Source: an uncultured Holophagae bacterium
GTDB taxonomy: Bacteria > Acidobacteriota > Thermoanaerobaculia > Thermoanaerobaculales > Sulfomarinibacteraceae
Reading direction: 5' to 3'
DNA length: 64,000 nucleotides
Assembly (NCBI GenBank): GCA_963801995.1
Contig: CAWDGW010000012.1
Location: 78,940-142,939 of the forward strand
Below are positions 17,297-44,353 of this stretch, in pieces (the first letter of the stretch is position 1; every line of letters starts with the position of its first letter). The translations under genes and the position numbers were made by a program. Under the pieces are notes generated by a model. That model was given only the letters and a program-made list of their open reading frames with translations. It was not told the DNA's origin and ran no database searches.

Positions 17297-17442
17297 TAGC
17301 TGCGCAATTCACTCCGCGGACTCCGTGAATTGCGTTGAATAGAATTTTCTTCAGTTCTCAATACTCGCGTCTCAGATCTCACTCCTCGATTGAATCGGAG
17401 AATCGCGGTGGTTGCCGTGAGATATGAGACGCAAGTATTGAG
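17297..17442. repeat. dispersed double-hairpin repeat, copy 1
   Basis: 42 bp identical to 31450-31491, then a CTCAATAC...GTATTGAG hairpin. Confidence 0.9.
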
Positions 17443-21280: not shown

Positions 21281-23612
<2,332 letters not shown>

Positions 23613-26859: not shown

Positions 26860-26944
26860 CTCAATACCCGCATGGCTGTTCTCACGCCACACTCGACCCG
26901 AGAATCGTGCATTTCACCGTGAGAACAGCCATGCGGGTATTGAG
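26860..26944. repeat. perfect 27-bp inverted repeat with CTCAATAC/GTATTGAG ends
   Basis: CTCAATACCCGCATGGCTGTTCTCACG ... CGTGAGAACAGCCATGCGGGTATTGAG. Confidence 0.9.
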
Positions 26945-31449: not shown

Positions 31450-31601
31450 TAGCTGCGCAATTCACTCCGCGGACTCCGTGAATTGCGTTGATTAGAAATC
31501 TGAAAAAACTCAATACTCGCGTCTCAGGTCTTGCGAGGCAATCGGATCGGAGGATCGAAGATGTCGCGAGCTCGTGTCATCTCGAGACGCGACGTATTGA
31601 G
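31450..31601. repeat. dispersed double-hairpin repeat, copy 2
   Basis: 42 bp identical to 17297-17338; CTCAATACTCGCGTCTCAG shared with 17357. Confidence 0.9.
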
Positions 31602-31721: not shown

Positions 31722-32141
31722 ATGGAGTTGACACCAGAAGTCGTGCAGCGCCTGGTGGCGGCTGCCGCCAAGGTCCGCGACCGAGCCCATGCCCCCTACT
31801 CGCGCTTCTGCGTCGGTGCTGCCTTGCTGCTCTCCAACAACGAGTTGATCACAGGCTGCAACGTGGAAAACGCCTCGTTCGGGCTCAGCGTCTGCGCTGA
31901 ACGCAACGCGGTGGCGGCCGGGGTGGCCGCCGGAACCACTTCCTTTCTGGCCTTGGCCGTGGTGACCGACACGTCCCCGCCGTCCAGCCCCTGCGGCGCT
32001 TGCCGCCAGGTCCTGGCCGAGTTCGGTGACTTTCCGGTCATTCTGGCGAACACAACCGGCGAACGCCGGATGACGAGCGTCGCCGAACTGCTGCCTCGGG
32101 CATTTTCGGGCACCGCCCTTCCAAACCGCGTTAAACGTTAG
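31722..32141 (+). CDS. cdd: cytidine deaminase
   Basis: APYSRF.VGAA, GCNVEN, CAER, PCGACRQ. Confidence 0.95.
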   Translation: MELTPEVVQRLVAAAAKVRDRAHAPYSRFCVGAALLLSNNELITGCNVENASFGLSVCAERNAVAAGVAAGTTSFLALAVVTDTSPPSSPCGACRQVLAEFGDFPVILANTTGERRMTSVAELLPRAFSGTALPNRVKR

Positions 32142-33000
32142 GCTCATCCGGAATTCCGTGAGGTGGTGGATGACAGCGACCAGGGACAGATTCAGCTGAC
32201 AGCGACAGGGGCCGGTGGCGGCGTCAGGTGACGGCGACGGCGTCAGAGTTGGACGGGTGCGGGCTACCGGGGATTGAGCAGTCGCCATGTCATGGCACGC
32301 ACCTCATCGAATCCCTGCAGGACCTTCTCCGCCCCGGTTCCATTGACGGCACTGGCAGCAGCAAGCAGTCGCAGGTGGCTGTCGACCTCCTTGGCCGAGG
32401 CGTAGGCGATCCGCCAGTGGTGCTGGCGATCTCTCCCGGATCGGCCGTGCCCTTCCGCTAAGTTGGCGGGGACCGAGCTGGCCGACCGGATCAGCTGATC
32501 GGCGATGGACTTGAGCGGAGCCGGAACTCTCAAAACCAGCGTAATTGCGATGCCTGCTGCTTCGAGGGCTTTGGTGTAGGCCACGAGATTGGTGTTGCTG
32601 ACGGCTTTGGACATGGTCACCTCCGGGTCGTTCATGCCCTTCAACAAGCTGCCAGGGAGGGCGGAGGGGCTGGCAGGGGGGCCTTGGAGATGGCACGACG
32701 AATTGTGGTGCGGCCGTCCCGGCTGCAAGACTCGGCCGTAAGGTCAGCAGGCCAGAGGCCCGCACCACAATCTCCCCCCTGCCAGCCCCTCCGCCCTCCC
32801 TGGCAGCTATCCGTCCCCGTCCCATAGAACGACCCGGAGGGGGCCATGCAGCCGCTGCACATCTGATCGCTGCCTCTGCCCCGGTCGCTGACCACAGTCG
32901 CTGCCCGCTGTTTCCTGCCCCCGTCGCTGCATCCTGACCCTGCCGCTGGGTTCGGGAACGGAAACAGCAACACCCGACATCACGCTTTCCCGGATGAACC
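32141..33000. mobile_element. non-autonomous ISL3-like cassette carrying a four-helix-bundle gene, copy 1 (860 bp)
   Basis: TIRs GGCTCATCCGGAATTCCGTG / CACGCTTTCCCGGATGAACC; AAACGTTA directly repeated at 32133-32140 and 33001-33008; no transposase. Confidence 0.8.
32264..32614 (-). CDS. four helix bundle protein (23S rRNA IVP/Avd-like)
   Basis: DQLIRSASSVPANLAEGHGR...IAYASAKE; GGAGG RBS. Confidence 0.92.
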   Translation of the reverse strand: MSKAVSNTNLVAYTKALEAAGIAITLVLRVPAPLKSIADQLIRSASSVPANLAEGHGRSGRDRQHHWRIAYASAKEVDSHLRLLAAASAVNGTGAEKVLQGFDEVRAMTWRLLNPR

Positions 33001-33130
33001 AAACGTTAGAAGTTACTGGTTAAACGTCGGCTGGCTCGCACTGCACAACGTCAGACGTTAAACGTGTGACCTGTCACGTGTCACATGTCACTCCAGATCC
33101 TTCAGCCGCTTCGGGCCGGCGGCGGCTGAC

Positions 33131-33159
33131 TTGACACGATCCACCGATGACCCCATATT
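33131..33159 (+). promoter_or_regulatory. sigma-70-like promoter
   Basis: TTGACA-17 bp-CATATT. Confidence 0.65.
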
Positions 33160-33164
33160 TGAAG

Positions 33165-33280
33165 TGTCCCTAGGGATCGCGGGTGTTCAACGGACTTCAC
33201 AGCCGCGATACAAACTGAAGAAGCCCGGGTGGGCATACCCACCGCGACGAAATCCCGCTTCACGCGGGGTTTCGTATTTC
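33165..33280 (+). ncRNA. candidate small structured RNA (Acido-Lenti-1-like hairpin)
   Basis: ATCGCGG...GGACTTCACAG-CCGCGAT stem, GGTGGG-CATA-CCCACC hairpin, terminator-like hairpin 33247-33275; family name is from memory only. Confidence 0.55.
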
Positions 33281-33377
33281 TGGGGTCGTAGGGGGAATCT
33301 CGGCGGTTGGAGATGGTTGCGCAATTCGCTCCTCGAATTGCGATATTTTCTTTTCAGACTTTTCCTCTTCGCGTTGG

Positions 33378-39641: not shown

Positions 39642-42283
39642 CATGGAACGACGCCCAGTGAAAGGGGTGGGCTCTCGCCGGGGAGCTTTCAGCGGTATGC
39701 CTTTGCGCGATCCACAGAGCCTCGACCGTGCTCCGACCCTCTTTCAGATTTGCGTAGTATCGGCCCATGAGCTCGGCCGTCGACCGGTCCGGTATGGCCC
39801 ACTGGGAAACGACCAGGGTGCGGGCTCCTGCGATTTGGAATGCTCGCGCGAGCCCAATGATGCCCTCGCCGTCGATGGCATGACCCCGGGCCGGTACTGC
39901 AGGCGGAGAGGACCACCACCTCGGCCTCGATAGCCAGCGTGTCAGCGATCTCCCAGGCCGAGAGCACGCCATCTTGGTCCGAGGATGTGGGATCCTCCGG
40001 AAGAGAGAAAAACAGCGCCGATTCCATTGGAAACCGAGAGTCAGCGACGGCATGAACAGCACAGTGCAGGATGCTGGCCGCCGCTCCGTGTTCCTTGAAA
40101 TTGTCCTCGGTCGCCGCCCCGCCCAGATAGGTCGCTGCCCCACTGCCAAAAAGTCGCTCGATGGATCTGATCTCTTCACGAGAGCCCGGAAGCGGCTGTA
40201 ATCCATACCGTTCAGTCACGGATGATTGGCGCGGATACTCGGGGTCACCAAAGGCTGCGATGGTGCTCGACCCGACGGGCCGGTCCCTCCGAAGCTGGCG
40301 GAGTTCGGCGAACACGCTCGCGGATGGGTTGAAGAAGAGTGGCTTGGTGTGACCGAGGTACCGGATGGGATCTCCCGGGAGGACAAGCGCTGCAAAGGGA
40401 AGATCGACCAGGGGACCGTCCGGCACGATGAGCACCCTGTCTGCCGCCGAGATGGCATCAAGAGCCGGTCCAAGTAGGAGTTCGAACAACTTCCGCGCCT
40501 GGGCGATGAGGGCGGGATCCACCGCCTCGGCCGTTCGCCCTCTGGCGATCAGGGCGTGGAAGATGTTCAGCCGCCTGCCGAGCTCCGGCCCTCCCATCGG
40601 TATGTGAAAAGCCTGGATCCCAGAGTCTCTTTCGACCCCAGCGCCGGTCACCAGCGCCATGCTCTGCTCTTCACCGACGGAGAAGTAGACCACAACCGTG
40701 CCGGCGTCCAGCGACTGCCTCGTTTTGATGGAGGTAACGACCCCGGGACTCGAGAATGCAGAGTACCGAGGTGCAGCCTCGCGGATCGCCGCCATCACCC
40801 CTTCGAGCTGTGCCTCCGCCGAATTCAGCTGTTCTCGATAGCGGTGAAGGGACTGCTCATCGCCGATCGGGTCGATCCGCGCGATCCGGCCTTCGATGCC
40901 CCCGATCCGCCGCTCCAACTGGTTTTTTGCGAACCAAAGCTCGGAGGGGATATTCGCCGGAACCGCGCCGCGACGCGCCAACACTTCCCGCAGGGCAGCT
41001 GCCCTGGCCCTTTCCAGAAGATCCCAGGCCTCGGCCGCGGCGGCCCTGGTCCACGAGTAGCCGCGCGAGCCTGCCGTAATAAGCGTAGTACCTGGCTCCG
41101 AATTGGGAGCGATCCTCGTCTGAAACCTGCATCCCCTGGCGACGTTCCTCGATGATGGCAATCGCCTCGCGCCACAGCTTCTCAGCGACCTCCGAGCGAC
41201 CCCGCGCCTGTTCGACAGCACCCAATGCAAAAAGGCTAACTGTGGAGTGTCGGATCCGAGGCGCCCCGCAGAATCCATCTCGCGTCGAAAGAAATCCCGG
41301 GCGTGATCGAAATCCCCTCGTCGCATGGCCAACAGCCCGAGATTCCCCAACACCTCGCACTCGGCCGGGCTTCCCTCTGCAACTCCCCGCACAACATCCA
41401 AGGCCGTTCGATACCCCTCCTCCGCAGCATCCAGATCCGACCGAACGAAGGCGATTGCGGCCAAGGTGTTGACAGCCTGCGCCCACTCGATGGTCTCGCC
41501 GCCGACCGTCAGGTAGATCTCTGCAGCGCGCGTCGCCTCCGGGTCACACCCTCTGAGGTTGGCCCGGCACAGCTGGAGCTGGGCGAATGCCAGCGCCGGC
41601 GAGTCCGGGACGTCGGCCTCGAGAAGCCCGATTCCCAATCGGAAGGCGCGGGCGGCGATGGACTGTCGGCCGACTGCGAGCAGGCCATCGCCGGCCCGCT
41701 CCCAGAACGCGGCGCGGAGCCGGTGATCCTCGATGGTCTCGGCTCCGATCACCAGAACGGGAAGGCACTCGTCGGGAGTCTCCGACGTGGCGAGAGCCAC
41801 TCCCTCCCTCATGTGGAACCAGGCCGCCTCGAGGGTATCCCCCAGCTCGGCCGCGGCGTTCGCGAGTCTCCTCCACTCCTCGACCGCGCCCTCCACATGT
41901 CCGCTGTCAGCCAACTCCTTCGCCCGCAGGTGTCCGGTCAACGATTCTTCGTCCAGCAGCGGACGAAGGTGGACCCGCCACCGACCGGTGCGAACCACGA
42001 CCCGCCGCTTCTTCGAATCGCGCTGAATGATCAGCTCCACCGGGCCGTGGGGAGCCAGCTCCTGTTCGACGACGGCCAGGTGGAAGGGCGACTCGATCGC
42101 CCCCGACGCTCTGCCCTGCCGCCAATCAACCACCACGTCGCCGGGCTTCAGCCCGGCCACATCGGCAGCCTCACCCCGGTCACAGGACACGACGACGGCG
42201 CCGTTGGTCGGCGGATGCTGAAGGCCGCAGCCCCAGAGCGCGAGCCTCGATGCAACCGCGGCCGTGCTGATCGCGCAATTCAC
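39622..42283 (-). CDS. PDZ-TPR-CHAT domain protein (frameshifted)
   Basis: AGLKPGDVVV, TPRs, PDGPL..LPFAAL, HCAVHA, VVLSAC, HPFHWASF; start uncertain. Confidence 0.85.
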
Positions 42284-42304
42284 TCCGCAGACTCCGTGAA
42301 TTGC
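42273..42304. repeat. first hairpin of the dispersed repeat, copy 3
   Basis: GCGCAATTCACTCCGCAGACTCCGTGAATTGC, one mismatch to copies 1 and 2. Confidence 0.85.
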
Positions 42305-42395
42305 GAAAATCTGAGAGCATAACCGCCGCCCTTCCCTCAGCGTAAACTCTGGAATCACCTGAGCGATCAGGCCAGAACCCCTCGAGGAGCGAGCT

Positions 42396-43503: not shown

Positions 43504-44353
43504 GGCTCATCCGGGAAAACGTGAGGTGGGGGTCGATCGATTTCGGACTTCACAACGGCACCCGCCCGCCCGAAGAGGAACCGCGGCTTCATCCGCGGAG
43601 ACAGCAATCAGGGACAGCGTCAGAAACCAGCGGCAGGGACCCGCGGCAGCGTCAGTTGACAGCGTCAGTATCGGAGAACCGGGCGCGCTCAGATGGGATT
43701 GAGCAGGCGCCACGTCATCGCACGAACTTGGTCGAAGGTCTCCAAGGCGTTCTCTGCCCCGATTCCATTGACTGCACCAGCGGCGGCGAGGAGTCGCAGG
43801 TGACTGTCGACCTCTTTGGCCGAGGCATAGGCGATCCGCCAGTGGTTCAACCGGTCTCGTCCAAACCGGCCGTGGCCTTCAGCGATGTTGGCCGGGACCG
43901 AGCTTGCCGACCGGATCACCTGATCGGCAATCGATTTCAGAGGAGCGGGAACCCTCATAACGAGCTTGATGGCGATGCCTGCCGCTTCAAGGGCTTTCTG
44001 CTGGGCTACGAGATTGGTGTTCGTGACGGCTCAGGACTGGTCACCTCCGGGTCGTTCATGCTCACCCGAATGCTGGCGAGGGGGCCGGTGTCAAGGGTTT
44101 GCCGGCCTTTGGCCGGCCGCATGGCGCCCTTGACACCGGCCCCCTCGCCAGCTATGCCCATTCACCCCGTGAACGACCCGGAGGTGACCATGTGCAATGC
44201 GGCCAAGACAACTGATTGCTGCCGCTGAAGACTGGTTACTGTCCCTGCTCGCTGTTCCCGGTCGCTGCCCCTGACTGCTGTCGCTGCCGCTGAATTTCGG
44301 GTACGGGAACGGGAACGGCGGGAACTTCAACCACACGTTATTCCGGATGAACC
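43504..44353. mobile_element. non-autonomous ISL3-like cassette carrying a four-helix-bundle gene, copy 2 (850 bp)
   Basis: TIRs GGCTCATCCGGGAAAACGTG / CACGTTATTCCGGATGAACC; same architecture as copy 1; no flanking duplication. Confidence 0.78.
43689..44038 (-). pseudogene. four helix bundle protein, 5' end damaged
   Basis: 75/89 aa identical to copy 1 by manual alignment; ATG reads AG and codon 3 is TGA; could restart at ATG 43958. Confidence 0.75.

Follow-up and report, generated by a model that had tools for sequence, protein, structure and literature searches.

A covarying nested palindrome at the start of a PF05635 gene in a multicopy cassette: a possible translational lock

What is the role of a nested palindrome that repeats, in antisense, the translation start region of the gene beside it, ribosome-binding site included? 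The question is raised by an 860-bp cassette within the window, the 64,000-nucleotide stretch of DNA analysed here. A preliminary description of the locus proposed that this structure controls the cargo gene of the cassette as a translational lock, a bidirectional promoter or an invertible switch. Of the three, the lock is the best supported and may be the answer, while the promoter fares poorly and the switch finds no support.

The cassette and its cargo gene

Two copies of the cassette are present in the window, both on the minus strand. Copy 1 (860 bp, 32141..33000) has terminal inverted repeats (TIRs) that begin GGCTCATCCGG and end CCGGATGAACC, and it is flanked by the 8-bp target-site duplication AAACGTTA on the left (32133..32140) and on the right (33001..33008). 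It is intergenic, flanked by genes for a cytidine deaminase and a SpoU methylase; no rRNA match was found within 31900-33300, and the cassette is not in 23S rRNA. Copy 2 (850 bp, 43504..44353) has a centre of the canonical type, with outer arms at 44038-44058 / 44170-44192 and an inner palindrome with TTGACA boxes at 44072-44097 / 44127-44152, and its gene start is destroyed. The genome holds about 71 centres of the cassette family, at roughly 70-90 insertion sites. Target duplications are AT-rich and 8 bp long, matching at 8/8 positions in 16 of the 48 cassettes with both ends found and at 7/8 in 6 more, while shuffled pairing of the ends gave 3.4 duplications of 7/8 or better on average and at most 10.

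ISL3 elements make 8-bp target duplications, and the cassette end GGTTCATCCGGGAAATCGTG resembles, when compared by eye, the ISL3 ends of related genomes, GGCGCTTCCGGGAATCGTGTGG (G004 and G007) and GGCTCATCC (G015 and G038). The terminal arms are mutually complementary, with CAGCGAC-type repeats on one side and GTCGCTG-type repeats on the other. Judged by its sequence, the cassette is a non-autonomous element with ISL3-like ends. It has no transposase and a single passenger gene; among the ORFs in the 860 bp, the Pfam search covered the 116-aa gene discussed below. No intact ISL3 transposase that could serve as a partner was found in the assembly, which contains one broken ISL3 transposase gene only. 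A subfamily whose start codon is destroyed has still multiplied, which argues for movement in trans. Our literature searches found no published account of the hairpin or the cassette.

The passenger gene (32264..32614, minus strand) encodes a protein of 116 aa that belongs to PF05635, the 23S rRNA intervening-sequence protein family of four-helix bundles (E 1.6e-15; 57.7 bits against a Pfam cut-off of 33.8), which bears out its earlier description as a four-helix-bundle gene. Of 120 other Acidobacteriota genomes in our sample, 70 encode proteins of this family. These proteins have had no known function since the 1990s, and the Coxiella member is apparently not made. The ratio dN/dS among 25 intact paralogues is 0.14 (298 pairs), by which measure the cargo protein is under purifying selection and, since it is under selection, must be made. 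Neighboring genes give no sign that its expression depends on read-through, as their orientation is unbiased: the 5′ neighbor points toward the cassette in 15 cases and away from it in 15, with 41 of the 71 uncalled, although this is a low-power test because the crude GC3-based calling left 41 and 45 of the 71 flanks uncalled.

Architecture of the nested palindrome

The outer repeat consists of two 22-nt arms at 32612-32633 and 32827-32848 that are 91% complementary, with a 14-nt core (CCTCCGGGTCGTTC / GAACGACCCGGAGG) that pairs perfectly. On the gene strand (minus), the gene-proximal arm (32612..32633) reads GAACGACCCGGAGGTGACCATG and contains the Shine-Dalgarno sequence (SD) GGAGG, separated by 5 nt from the start codon. 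The distal arm (32827..32848, minus strand; GAACGACCCGGAGGGGGCCATG on the plus strand) is its anti-SD and anti-start counterpart, so that the right arm does mirror the ribosome-binding site and start of the cargo gene, as had been claimed. An upstream in-frame ATG, within CATGAAC, is located 7 codons before the annotated start at the edge of the outer helix (32633..32635, minus strand), and its A and T are invariant in 72/72 aligned sequences. The 3′ arm starts with the G of this upstream ATG, includes GGAGG-N5, and reaches the annotated ATG, and the distal arm is complementary to the SD and to both candidate start codons. The distal arm also opens a 6-codon ORF (MQPLHI; 32846..32866, plus strand), which is not conserved. 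A second gene start or leader peptide in the distal arm was considered and rejected, as the ATG is kept in 41/72 sequences and the peptide, of 6 or 12 codons, is variable. Between the outer and inner repeats lie two spacers that form an internal loop, one on the gene side (32634..32646, minus strand) and one on the far side (32809..32826, minus strand). On the gene strand both consist mostly of purines (70% and 67%), with C at 11% and 17%, and they are thus not mirror images of each other, unlike the two sides of a purely symmetric DNA palindrome.

The inner repeat (32647-32681 / 32774-32808) is made up of 35-nt arms that are 100% complementary and enclose a 92-nt loop, and no match to it arose in 100 shuffles. 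At its center is a REP-like doublet of two inverted 25-nt units (32702..32771; 32702-32726 / 32747-32771) that are 80% complementary. The outer pairing, the inner repeat, the doublet, and the right-arm ATG with its 6-codon ORF were all recovered where the preliminary description had placed them. The perfection of the 35-bp repeat was also correct. Comparison with 30 type-A copies reveals that the arms are a composite of 14 bp from the cassette's own inner arm, left as the remnants AGCTGCCAGGGAGG (32647..32660) and CCTCCCTGGCAGCT (32795..32808), and 21 bp from the arms of an inserted REP-doublet unit. This unit, which has G-rich arms and which we call a type-D centre (32661..32794), stands in place of the canonical tip TGTCAAGGG-loop-CCCTTGACA; most copies carry the invariant CCCTTGACA on each arm of the inner-palindrome tip. 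Copy 1 is without TTGACA, and the tip swap lengthened its perfect arms to 35 bp and left the outer helix intact. Annotators should be warned that a long perfect palindrome in such a genome can be built from nested mobile elements.

The type-D unit is found in 6 cassettes at 96.6-100% identity over a 146-nt query, and the genes of the cassettes that share it differ by a dS of 0.12-0.17. Perfect target duplications flank three type-D copies, and the duplicated sequence differs between them. Across the genome, blastn matched the doublet family 221 times, in 140 cases over at least 60 nt, in a count where palindromic units may score on both strands. One of the 13 Y1-transposase (RAYT-like) genes, Y1_Tnp at C7:45226-45456, is flanked by 6 doublet-family hits within 1.5 kb. 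Other insertions into the tip include a MITE at C17:977165 and an insert at GAAC^GACC in two loci (L170 and L132). The outer helix outlives the hairpin tip: the 6 type-D copies still have it, as do the longer-gap loci (157-224 nt), which are without CCCTTGACA. The inner palindrome is deleted in 4/71 centres, none of which (0/4) has an intact 116-codon gene; other copies do have the palindrome, whose absence from them had been named as grounds for rejecting the preliminary proposal. A search of Rfam found nothing near the gathering score and only generic long-hairpin matches to models of plant and animal miRNA precursors.

A short segment between perfect inverted repeats is the arrangement in which site-specific recombination could flip the segment and turn the gene on or off, as the preliminary description suggested. 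This reading is hardly credible here. The asymmetric loop, in which two different small hairpins follow each other in constant order, has one orientation relative to the gene in 30/30 type-A copies, in all copies read of the other types, and in 72/72 aligned sequences, and the cassette encodes no recombinase. Flipping a segment between symmetric -35 boxes would also alter little. Contigs of four DNA runs, which are short and repeat-collapsed and cannot show rare forms, contain only joints that skip part of the sequence and no strand-change joints. The strongest skip joint, from 32660 to 32795, is present in three runs (X1, X3, and X4); because a contig of X2 passes from 32660 into a canonical type-A tip, this joint fits copies with another type of centre.

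The tip also bears on the second proposal, a divergent promoter or operator in which the outward-facing CCCTTGACA boxes are -35 elements or the half-sites of a symmetric repressor, driving the cargo gene in one direction and an outward transcript in the opposite one. Canonical copies have a perfect TTGACA on each arm, and CCCTTGACA, a perfect -35 and the only conserved motif between the arms, is nearly invariant on both of them while the remaining stem covaries. TTGACA and CATGAAC are a constant 35-37 nt apart in 72/72 sequences, and on the far side a TA is rightly placed in 30/72. Moreover, the organism uses TTGACA-N17-TANNNT elsewhere, at 57 of 1085 sites, against 12 and 15 at N16 and N18. 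However, the hexamer 17 nt past TTGACA fits TANNNT in 0/72 sequences on the gene side and 1/72 on the far side, where the spacing is also variable (33-42 nt), and a scan with the consensus promoter matched neither cassette of the window. The boxes are missing from copy 1 and from other subfamilies that retain intact genes and have spread. We consider a divergent promoter to be quite improbable. An informal look by eye for sigma-54 or ECF-type motifs in the arm and spacer found neither conserved across types, and these candidates were set aside.

Covariation, folding, and the proposed lock

Related loci were chosen by protein similarity alone; 80 were kept, all from close relatives, and the outer repeat is present in 74 of 76 testable loci. 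The gap between its arms is 85-140 nt in 67 of these, 157-224 nt in 6, and 62 nt in 1, with no repeat in 2; the best outer-repeat score in shuffles was 13. The covariation alignment comprised 72 sequences from 14 genomes and 49 specified pairs. These pairs are 93.4% paired across the 72 sequences, a figure subject to selection bias as 57 of the 72 rows were chosen for having the repeat (score of at least 12 and gap of 90-135). Two-sided changes occur in 33 pairs (320 cells), which was reached by 0/500 shuffles, while controls in which the pairing was slid gave 14-22 pairs and 38-82 cells. Compensated pairs make up 12/22 of the outer helix and 21/27 of the inner palindrome. RNAalifold independently predicted both helices, with 23/31 pairs compensated. 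Examples of compensation include GAACAACACGGAGGAAATCATG, which is perfect on both arms, GACCTGGAGG / CCTCCAGGTC, and an altered SD, GAAGG, that is met by CCTTC in the distal arm. The retention of an arm complementary to the SD and start, and its covariation with them, favor the proposal of a translational lock. Two possible sources of the hairpin were tried and rejected. Inheritance from a parent insertion sequence would place such a palindrome upstream of ISL3 transposase genes, but neither it nor the ribosome-binding-site motif is found there in G004, G007, G015, G016, and G038. In a sample of 27 distant Acidobacteriota loci, an anti-RBS hairpin is not a general trait of PF05635 genes, as only 1 beat shuffles, and this through heptamer-repeat arms.

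Folding of 32596-32864 gives -186.8 kcal/mol (z -11.1) and -181.1 kcal/mol (z -10.4) for the two strands, so that the minus-strand transcript named in the preliminary description is, like its complement, predicted to fold far below shuffles. The canonical hairpin reaches -124.7 kcal/mol (z -11.4). For the 81-nt segment that starts with CATGAAC, the predicted energy is only -10.1 kcal/mol, which 197/200 shuffles equal or better.

We propose, at a probability of about 0.45, that the nested palindrome forms a fold-back helix in RNA and thereby hides the translation start of transcripts that enter from outside. Read on the gene strand, the hairpin would begin with the anti-SD/anti-start arm, followed by a purine-rich spacer and an inner stem of ~27 bp capped by two small hairpins, and then by the second purine-rich spacer and the arm GAACGACCCGGAGGTGACCATG with the ribosome-binding site and start. 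An RNA that starts upstream of the distal arm may form a two-tier helix of ~49 bp and ~-125 kcal/mol in canonical copies, in which the SD and both candidate AUGs would be paired and ribosome loading blocked. A duplex of this length could also be a substrate for an RNase III-type enzyme. We infer that productive transcripts start at or after CATGAAC, where an RNA would be without the distal arm and its start region would be open. The hairpin would then uncouple translation of the cargo from transcription entering at roughly 70-90 insertion sites. Against this proposal, there is no recognizable promoter between the arms; if every mRNA contained the distal arm, the stable helix would silence the gene wholly, which conflicts with the dN/dS of 0.14. 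Nor are G-U pairs favored, a pattern that speaks more for DNA-level pairing or copying, or for a requirement that both strands fold, than for a constraint on one RNA strand. Covariation could also arise neutrally, as template switching in quasi-palindromes would give the same pattern.

Alternatively, the palindrome may function in DNA and not in translation. It would then be the legacy of a fold-back build in which TIR, repeat arm, ribosome-binding site, and start are mirrored on both sides, its arms kept complementary by hairpin or template-switch copying in single-stranded DNA. Envisaged roles include a cruciform, a means of drawing the two ends close for transposition, and a landing pad for hairpin-seeking elements. 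Nearly all changes are from one Watson-Crick pair to another, and the non-Watson-Crick cells are not enriched in G-U (35 G-U on the gene strand, 73 A-C, which would be G-U on the other strand, and 156 others). Close type-A copies from the same genome display adjacent compensated double changes beside TTGACA, and the distal side of types B and C resembles the first ~27 nt of the gene (MCNAAKTTD and MFNASKATD, compared with MSKAVSNTN). The tip has also been invaded repeatedly by small palindromic elements, namely the REP unit (n=6), the MITE, and the GAAC^GACC insert. The spacers are difficult to reconcile with this history, as they are non-complementary and purine-rich on the same strand in 61 and 54 of the 72 sequences, a feature that symmetric homogenisation would erase. 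Complementarity is confined to discrete blocks, one of which is exactly the segment from SD to start. The tip is dispensable for transposition, given the type-D copies with their distinct target duplications, and long palindromes are prone to deletion, as the 4 deleted copies illustrate, yet the architecture persists in 14 genomes. We regard a purely DNA-level role as unlikely, though it deserves serious consideration.

It is also conceivable that the long duplex is there to be cut, and that the lock is a by-product of processing or a gate on it. According to this explanation, a promoter-less cassette resembling an rRNA intervening sequence (IVS) would be transcribed from its neighbors, and RNase III would cut the 49-bp helix and the terminal arms to release or destroy the mRNA. 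The PF05635 family is also found in rRNA IVSs, and an account of the Coxiella element describes a 28-bp terminal stem that RNase III cuts and in which the SD region lies (PMC4990558). The cassette yielded no promoter, its stems are long near-perfect duplexes with an internal loop, and the terminal arms could pair with each other. Nevertheless, the 5′ neighbor points toward the cassette in only 15 of 30 callable cases, which implies that half of the copies would be without sense read-through, and after a cut in either stem the anti-SD strand would still be paired or the SD would be lost, with no obvious way to switch the gene on. Unlike the ORF in the loop of an IVS, that of the cassette is outside the central hairpin, and the cassette is intergenic and not in rRNA. 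We consider such a module distinctly unlikely.

A more elaborate version is that the cassette is a promoter-less selfish gene fed by read-through and gated by RNase III, or a helicase, at the 49-bp hairpin, with REP units overwriting the tip. This combination is a long shot. If it were true, the Avd-like protein would be made at 70-90 loci together only when dsRNA processing changes, for example under stress or phage attack, and the module would be a free-living counterpart of the stems through which ORF-bearing intervening sequences are cut out of rRNA. Hairpin-seeking REP units would repeatedly overwrite the tip and spread between cassettes faster than the cassettes diverge. The translational lock, by comparison, is open to a direct test in which one arm is mutated and a compensating change is then introduced in the other.

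Comparison with known systems

The closest parallels to the proposed lock are found in insertion sequences. Both IS10 and IS50 employ fold-back inhibition of translation in read-through transcripts, with their own promoter located between the arms. A further example is IS200, for which the SD of tnpA is described as sequestered by a stem-loop in the 5′UTR (PMC4513863). As in these elements, an inverted repeat of the cassette is complementary to the SD and start of the gene that the cassette carries. With its two tiers (22 + 27 bp, ~-125 kcal/mol), the cassette helix far exceeds theirs in length, and what it would protect is a passenger PF05635 gene, whereas the IS helices protect a transposase. 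As to a promoter so placed in the cassette, a perfect -35 is separated by 35-37 nt from the point where the 3′ arm starts, but TANNNT follows it in 0/72 sequences, the promoter scan gave no match, and copy 1 has no such box. We found no antisense RNA gene. If the lock is real, a passenger gene, and not a transposase, would have acquired IS-style protection from outside transcription.

The cassette doublet has counterparts in REP/BIME sequences and their RAYT genes, as it consists of ~70-nt palindromic units that are scattered and in tandem and that flank one Y1-transposase gene. It differs from them in being inside the hairpin of another mobile element, whose tip it has replaced. The cassette as a whole is close to mobile insertion cassettes (MICs) and other cargo-bearing non-autonomous derivatives of ISL3-family insertion sequences, with which it shares ISL3-like TIRs, AT-rich 8-bp duplications, the absence of a transposase, and one passenger gene. 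Compared with MICs, it is present at very high copy number and has a conserved internal hairpin that may serve in control.

Finally, the cassette hairpin resembles the stems of 23S rRNA IVSs (Coxiella burnetii S23p; Leptospira), if the analogy holds. Shared features include PF05635, a compact element, and complementary bounding arms. In Coxiella, the SD of the homologous ORF is described as part of a long stem that is known to be cut by RNase III (PMC4990558), and the SD region of the cassette ORF is likewise in a long stem, which may link the cassette to IVS biology. Unlike the IVS, the cassette is intergenic, has TIRs and an 8-bp target duplication, and is present in about 70-90 copies, and its ORF is 3′ of the central hairpin and not in the loop. 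The cargo gene of a widespread family, PF05635, is thus seen here on a high-copy transposable cassette, apparently under purifying selection and with a covarying helix over its ribosome-binding site.

The nested palindrome and the cassette that carries it

The structure at 32612-32848 is a real nested palindrome, and its outer repeat, inner repeat and central doublet all lie where the preliminary description had placed them. The outer inverted repeat (32612-32633 / 32827-32848) is made up of 22-nt arms that are 91% complementary around a perfect 14-nt core. This encloses a perfect 35-nt inner repeat (32647-32681 / 32774-32808) with a 92-nt loop, which in turn holds a 25-nt doublet (32702-32726 / 32747-32771). 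No second occurrence of the 35-mer repeat was seen in the window, and 100 shuffles produced none. The minus-strand RNA of 32596-32864, whose folding had been proposed as a check, is predicted to fold strongly, as is the plus strand; at about -185 kcal/mol, either is more stable than its shuffles by roughly 11 sd. Left of the palindrome lies the cassette gene (32264-32614, minus strand), whose 116-aa product matches PF05635, the "23S rRNA intervening-sequence protein" family, at E 1.6e-15. Read in the orientation of the gene, the left outer arm is GAACGACCCGGAGGTGACCATG, in which the Shine-Dalgarno sequence (SD) is followed, after a spacer of 5 nt, by the start codon.

Gene and palindrome belong to a mobile cassette (copy 1, 32141-33000) with terminal inverted repeats GGCTCATCCGG... 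/ ...CCGGATGAACC and the flanking direct repeat AAACGTTA. Copy 2 (43504-44353) has the same outer repeat and a different inner palindrome. The source genome (G000; 5.16 Mb, 17 contigs) contains 71 centres with both outer arms at most 320 nt apart, one additional arm pair being left out as a chance match, and its 178 CCCTTGACA sites suggest about 70-90 cassettes. Among 48 centres with both ends located, target duplications match at 8/8 positions in 16 and 7/8 in 6; some twelve of the others are false left ends within type-B copies. Shuffled end pairings gave at least 7/8 an average of 3.4 times and 10 at most. Target sites follow the AT-rich 8-bp pattern NAAMNTTN and often fall within the heptamer arrays that fill the genome's spacers. 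The cassette has no transposase, and the sole ISL3 transposase gene in the assembly (94.5% complete) is broken. Intact ISL3 elements of same-genus or same-family genomes have ends resembling those of the cassette: two of these genomes show GGCGCTTCCGGGAATCGTGTGG and two more show GGCTCATCC... The 116-codon gene is intact in 25 G000 copies, whose pairwise dN/dS of 0.14 (298 pairs) places the protein under selection. In a large subfamily (window 44036-44045 and about 15 further G000 cassettes), loss of one base together with a stop has destroyed the start (GGTGACCAGTCCTGAGCC); this subfamily has still multiplied, and movement therefore needs no gene in cis. Three to four tandem copies also occur inside one terminal-repeat pair (contig C1:33375-36431, 3057 bp).

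The window contains further repeats. One, unrelated to the cassette, is an inverted repeat whose 27-bp arms match perfectly around a loop of 31 nt (26860-26886 / 26918-26944). A dispersed hairpin repeat, GCGCAATTCACTCCGCGGACTCCGTGAATTGCG, is found at 17297-17344, 31450-31497 and 42268-42315, with a weaker copy at 33314-33361; one copy is just upstream of the cytidine deaminase gene adjoining the cassette. A long tandem array of 39-nt period at 22448-23566 (22 overlapping 300-nt registers, 64-100% identity) is probably a repeat-rich coding region.

Canonical, tip-replaced and covarying centres

Canonical centres fall into types A, B and C, with outer-arm gaps of 129, 127 and 124 nt in 30, 17 and 8 copies, respectively. 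Along the gene strand, each starts with the distal arm CATGGTC(A/C)CCTCCGGGTCGTTC, followed by a purine-rich spacer of 12-18 nt, an inner arm of about 27 nt with the 3' end TGTCAAGGG, a ~30-nt loop of two small hairpins in fixed order, a second inner arm beginning CCCTTGACA, a purine-rich spacer of 11-14 nt, and CATGAACGACCCGGAGGTGACCATG. Towards its base, the inner stem has a wholly different sequence in each type, complementary in every case. Four copies have lost the inner palindrome through deletion between short direct repeats, and in one (C17:977165) it holds another small inserted element. In the six type-D copies, copy 1 included, the 53-nt tip GTTGTCAAGGG-loop-CCCTTGACAAC is replaced by a ~134-nt unit (window 32661-32794) in which a REP doublet is joined by G-rich arms and by a left flank that is conserved. 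The 35-bp inverted repeat is thus perfect, as described earlier, but is not a single repeat; 14 bp are cassette arm and 21 bp are arm of the inserted unit. Perfect target duplications, each of a different sequence, flank three type-D copies, so the canonical tip is dispensable for transposition.

The description of the central doublet as REP-like holds, as its family gives 221 blastn hits, with tandem arrays on several contigs; six hits surround 1 of 13 Y1-transposase genes. The other cassettes with the unit lie at C13:150199-150344, C17:286809-286954, C17:951755-951899, C5:567641-567786 and C8:508379-508524. Among the six, the unit is 96.6-100% identical (146-nt query), while the genes are dS 0.12-0.17 apart and each is nearer a type-A gene. 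The unit has thus moved between cassettes already in place, by conversion or repeated capture and not only by one founder's transposition. The doublet also tips other long G+C-rich palindromes with unrelated arms (C13:177786-177906, C1:2566-2686, C2:241166-241303); it seems that REP doublets either come to lie at the tips of hairpins or produce inverted flanks themselves. Other small elements have also invaded the hairpin, at C17:977165-977490 and at loci L170, L132, L144 and L165. Among them are a ~180-bp element in the inner stem, bounded by TAGCCCGCACTTCTCACC, and, in one related genome, an insert of ~115 nt that splits the RBS arm precisely at GAAC^GACC. The hairpin region is an insertion hot spot.

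Cassette or gene DNA is present in 25 of 40 related genomes (20/24 of the same family, 5/16 of the sister family). Eighty loci labelled Candidatus Sulfomarinibacteraceae, Thermoanaerobaculia and similar were fetched by protein similarity only, and 76 were testable. An arm complementary to the RBS lies 85-140 nt upstream in 67 of these, at 157-224 nt with the tip altered or interrupted in 6, and at 62 nt in 1; 2 have none. CCCTTGACA or CCCCTGACA is present in 58. From an alignment of 72 centres (15 from G000, 57 from 13 other genomes), RNAalifold predicted both helices, with compensatory changes at 23/31 pairs. Across 49 specified pairs, 93.4% of cells are paired, a percentage biased by the choice of the 57 non-G000 rows for having the repeat, and double changes occur at 33 pairs (320 cells). 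None of 500 shuffles matched these counts, and sliding the partner by 1-3 columns gave 14-22 pairs and 38-82 cells. In the outer helix 12 of 22 pairs are compensated, including in lineages with a wholly different arm (GAACAACACGGAGGAAATCATG, GAACGAACGGGAGGAAACC), and one lineage has an altered SD, GAAGG, faced by CCTTC. The palindrome is thus one tip-replaced copy of a conserved, covarying control hairpin in a high-copy cassette. Among distant PF05635 loci of other Acidobacteriota, 1/27 had a hairpin above shuffles, its arms being heptamer repeats, and nothing similar was found upstream of ISL3 transposase genes in relatives; by these comparisons the hairpin appears specific to this cassette lineage. 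Heptamer-type tandem repeats (with units such as GGATAGG, CATTAGG, ACTAGGG, GATCAGG and AGCTTTC) lie directly upstream of many distant PF05635 genes (L199-L227, other Acidobacteriota, 60 nt examined), which ties these genes to the heptamer arrays, as yet unexplained, in the intergenic DNA of the phylum.

A putative translational lock

Of the three functions suggested earlier, a translational lock on the cassette gene is the best supported, although the internal promoter it requires was not located; we give it a probability of about 45%. Transcripts entering from outside would fold, blocking translation, and would probably be cut as long dsRNA, while a transcript starting at or after CATGAAC, the site of an upstream in-frame ATG at the edge of the outer helix, would be open. 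The complementarity that is conserved falls on the stretch from the SD to the start codon. Selection does not keep the distal arm as a start site: its ATG is present in 41/72 sequences and opens an ORF of 6 or 12 variable codons. Between the two in-frame ATGs, 7 codons vary non-conservatively (MNDPEVT, MNTTEET, MNNTKKI, MNEREET) with pairing kept, and the constraint is therefore on nucleotides, not peptide. The canonical hairpin is predicted at -124.7 kcal/mol. For the 81-nt stretch that begins at CATGAAC, 197 of 200 shuffles are more structured. Of the upstream neighbours, 15 point toward the cassette, 15 point away and 41 were uncalled; this shows no bias for a co-directional gene, so productive expression should be independent of read-through.

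Alternatively, and less likely, the palindrome may act in DNA and have no translational role. Substitutions are almost all from one Watson-Crick pair to another, as arm-to-arm copying in DNA would give, and G-U is not favoured (non-Watson-Crick cells are 35 G-U, 73 A-C and 156 others). Template switching in quasi-palindromes is one such copying mechanism. A need for RNAs of both strands to fold would equally give this pattern. Against a DNA-level role and in favour of the lock, both spacers are purine-rich on the gene strand (70% and 67% purine, 11% and 17% C), which preserves an internal loop and is an asymmetry that symmetric DNA processes would not create.

The lock is weakened because G-U pairs are not favoured and no internal promoter was found. 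CCCTTGACA is a perfect -35 box, kept at 35, 36 and 37 nt from CATGAAC in 37, 12 and 23 of 72 sequences; on the far side, the corresponding distance varies between 33 and 42 nt. TANNNT stands 17 nt downstream in 0/72 on the gene side and 1/72 on the far side, leaving the bidirectional promoter proposed earlier weak and a divergent promoter or operator improbable. Intact genes also occur in copies without the -35 box, copy 1 included. Judged by motif spacing, canonical sigma-70 promoters are evidently in use in G000, their spacer being strictly 17 nt: TANNNT follows at N17 in 57 of 1085 non-cassette TTGACA sites, compared with 12 at N16 and 15 at N18 (background 0.2%). The remaining suggestion, an invertible switch, is weak and hardly credible.

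Comparison with known systems

Fold-back control of the RBS is known for mobile-element genes. Literature searches found no publication on this hairpin or cassette. In its proposed action the hairpin resembles the RBS-sequestering repeats of insertion sequences. IS10 and IS50 are subject to fold-back inhibition; their promoter lies between the arms, where canonical cassettes show a perfect -35 box without TANNNT at N17 on the gene side, and membership of the cassette in that group is for this reason unproven. In IS200, the SD is sequestered by a 5'UTR stem-loop, and a terminator acts against impinging transcription (PMC4513863). In the Coxiella IVS, a 28-bp stem is cut by RNase III and the AG-rich SD region is removed (PMC4990558). 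The cassette is like ORF-bearing 23S rRNA IVSs in that its gene is of the same family and its SD lies within a long stem, but it is not located in rRNA and so is not an IVS; that the hairpin is an IVS-like RNase III module in a cassette that lacks a promoter is rather unlikely. The central doublet is a unit of the REP/BIME type, and as a mobile element the cassette fits the class of MIC-type ISL3 derivatives.
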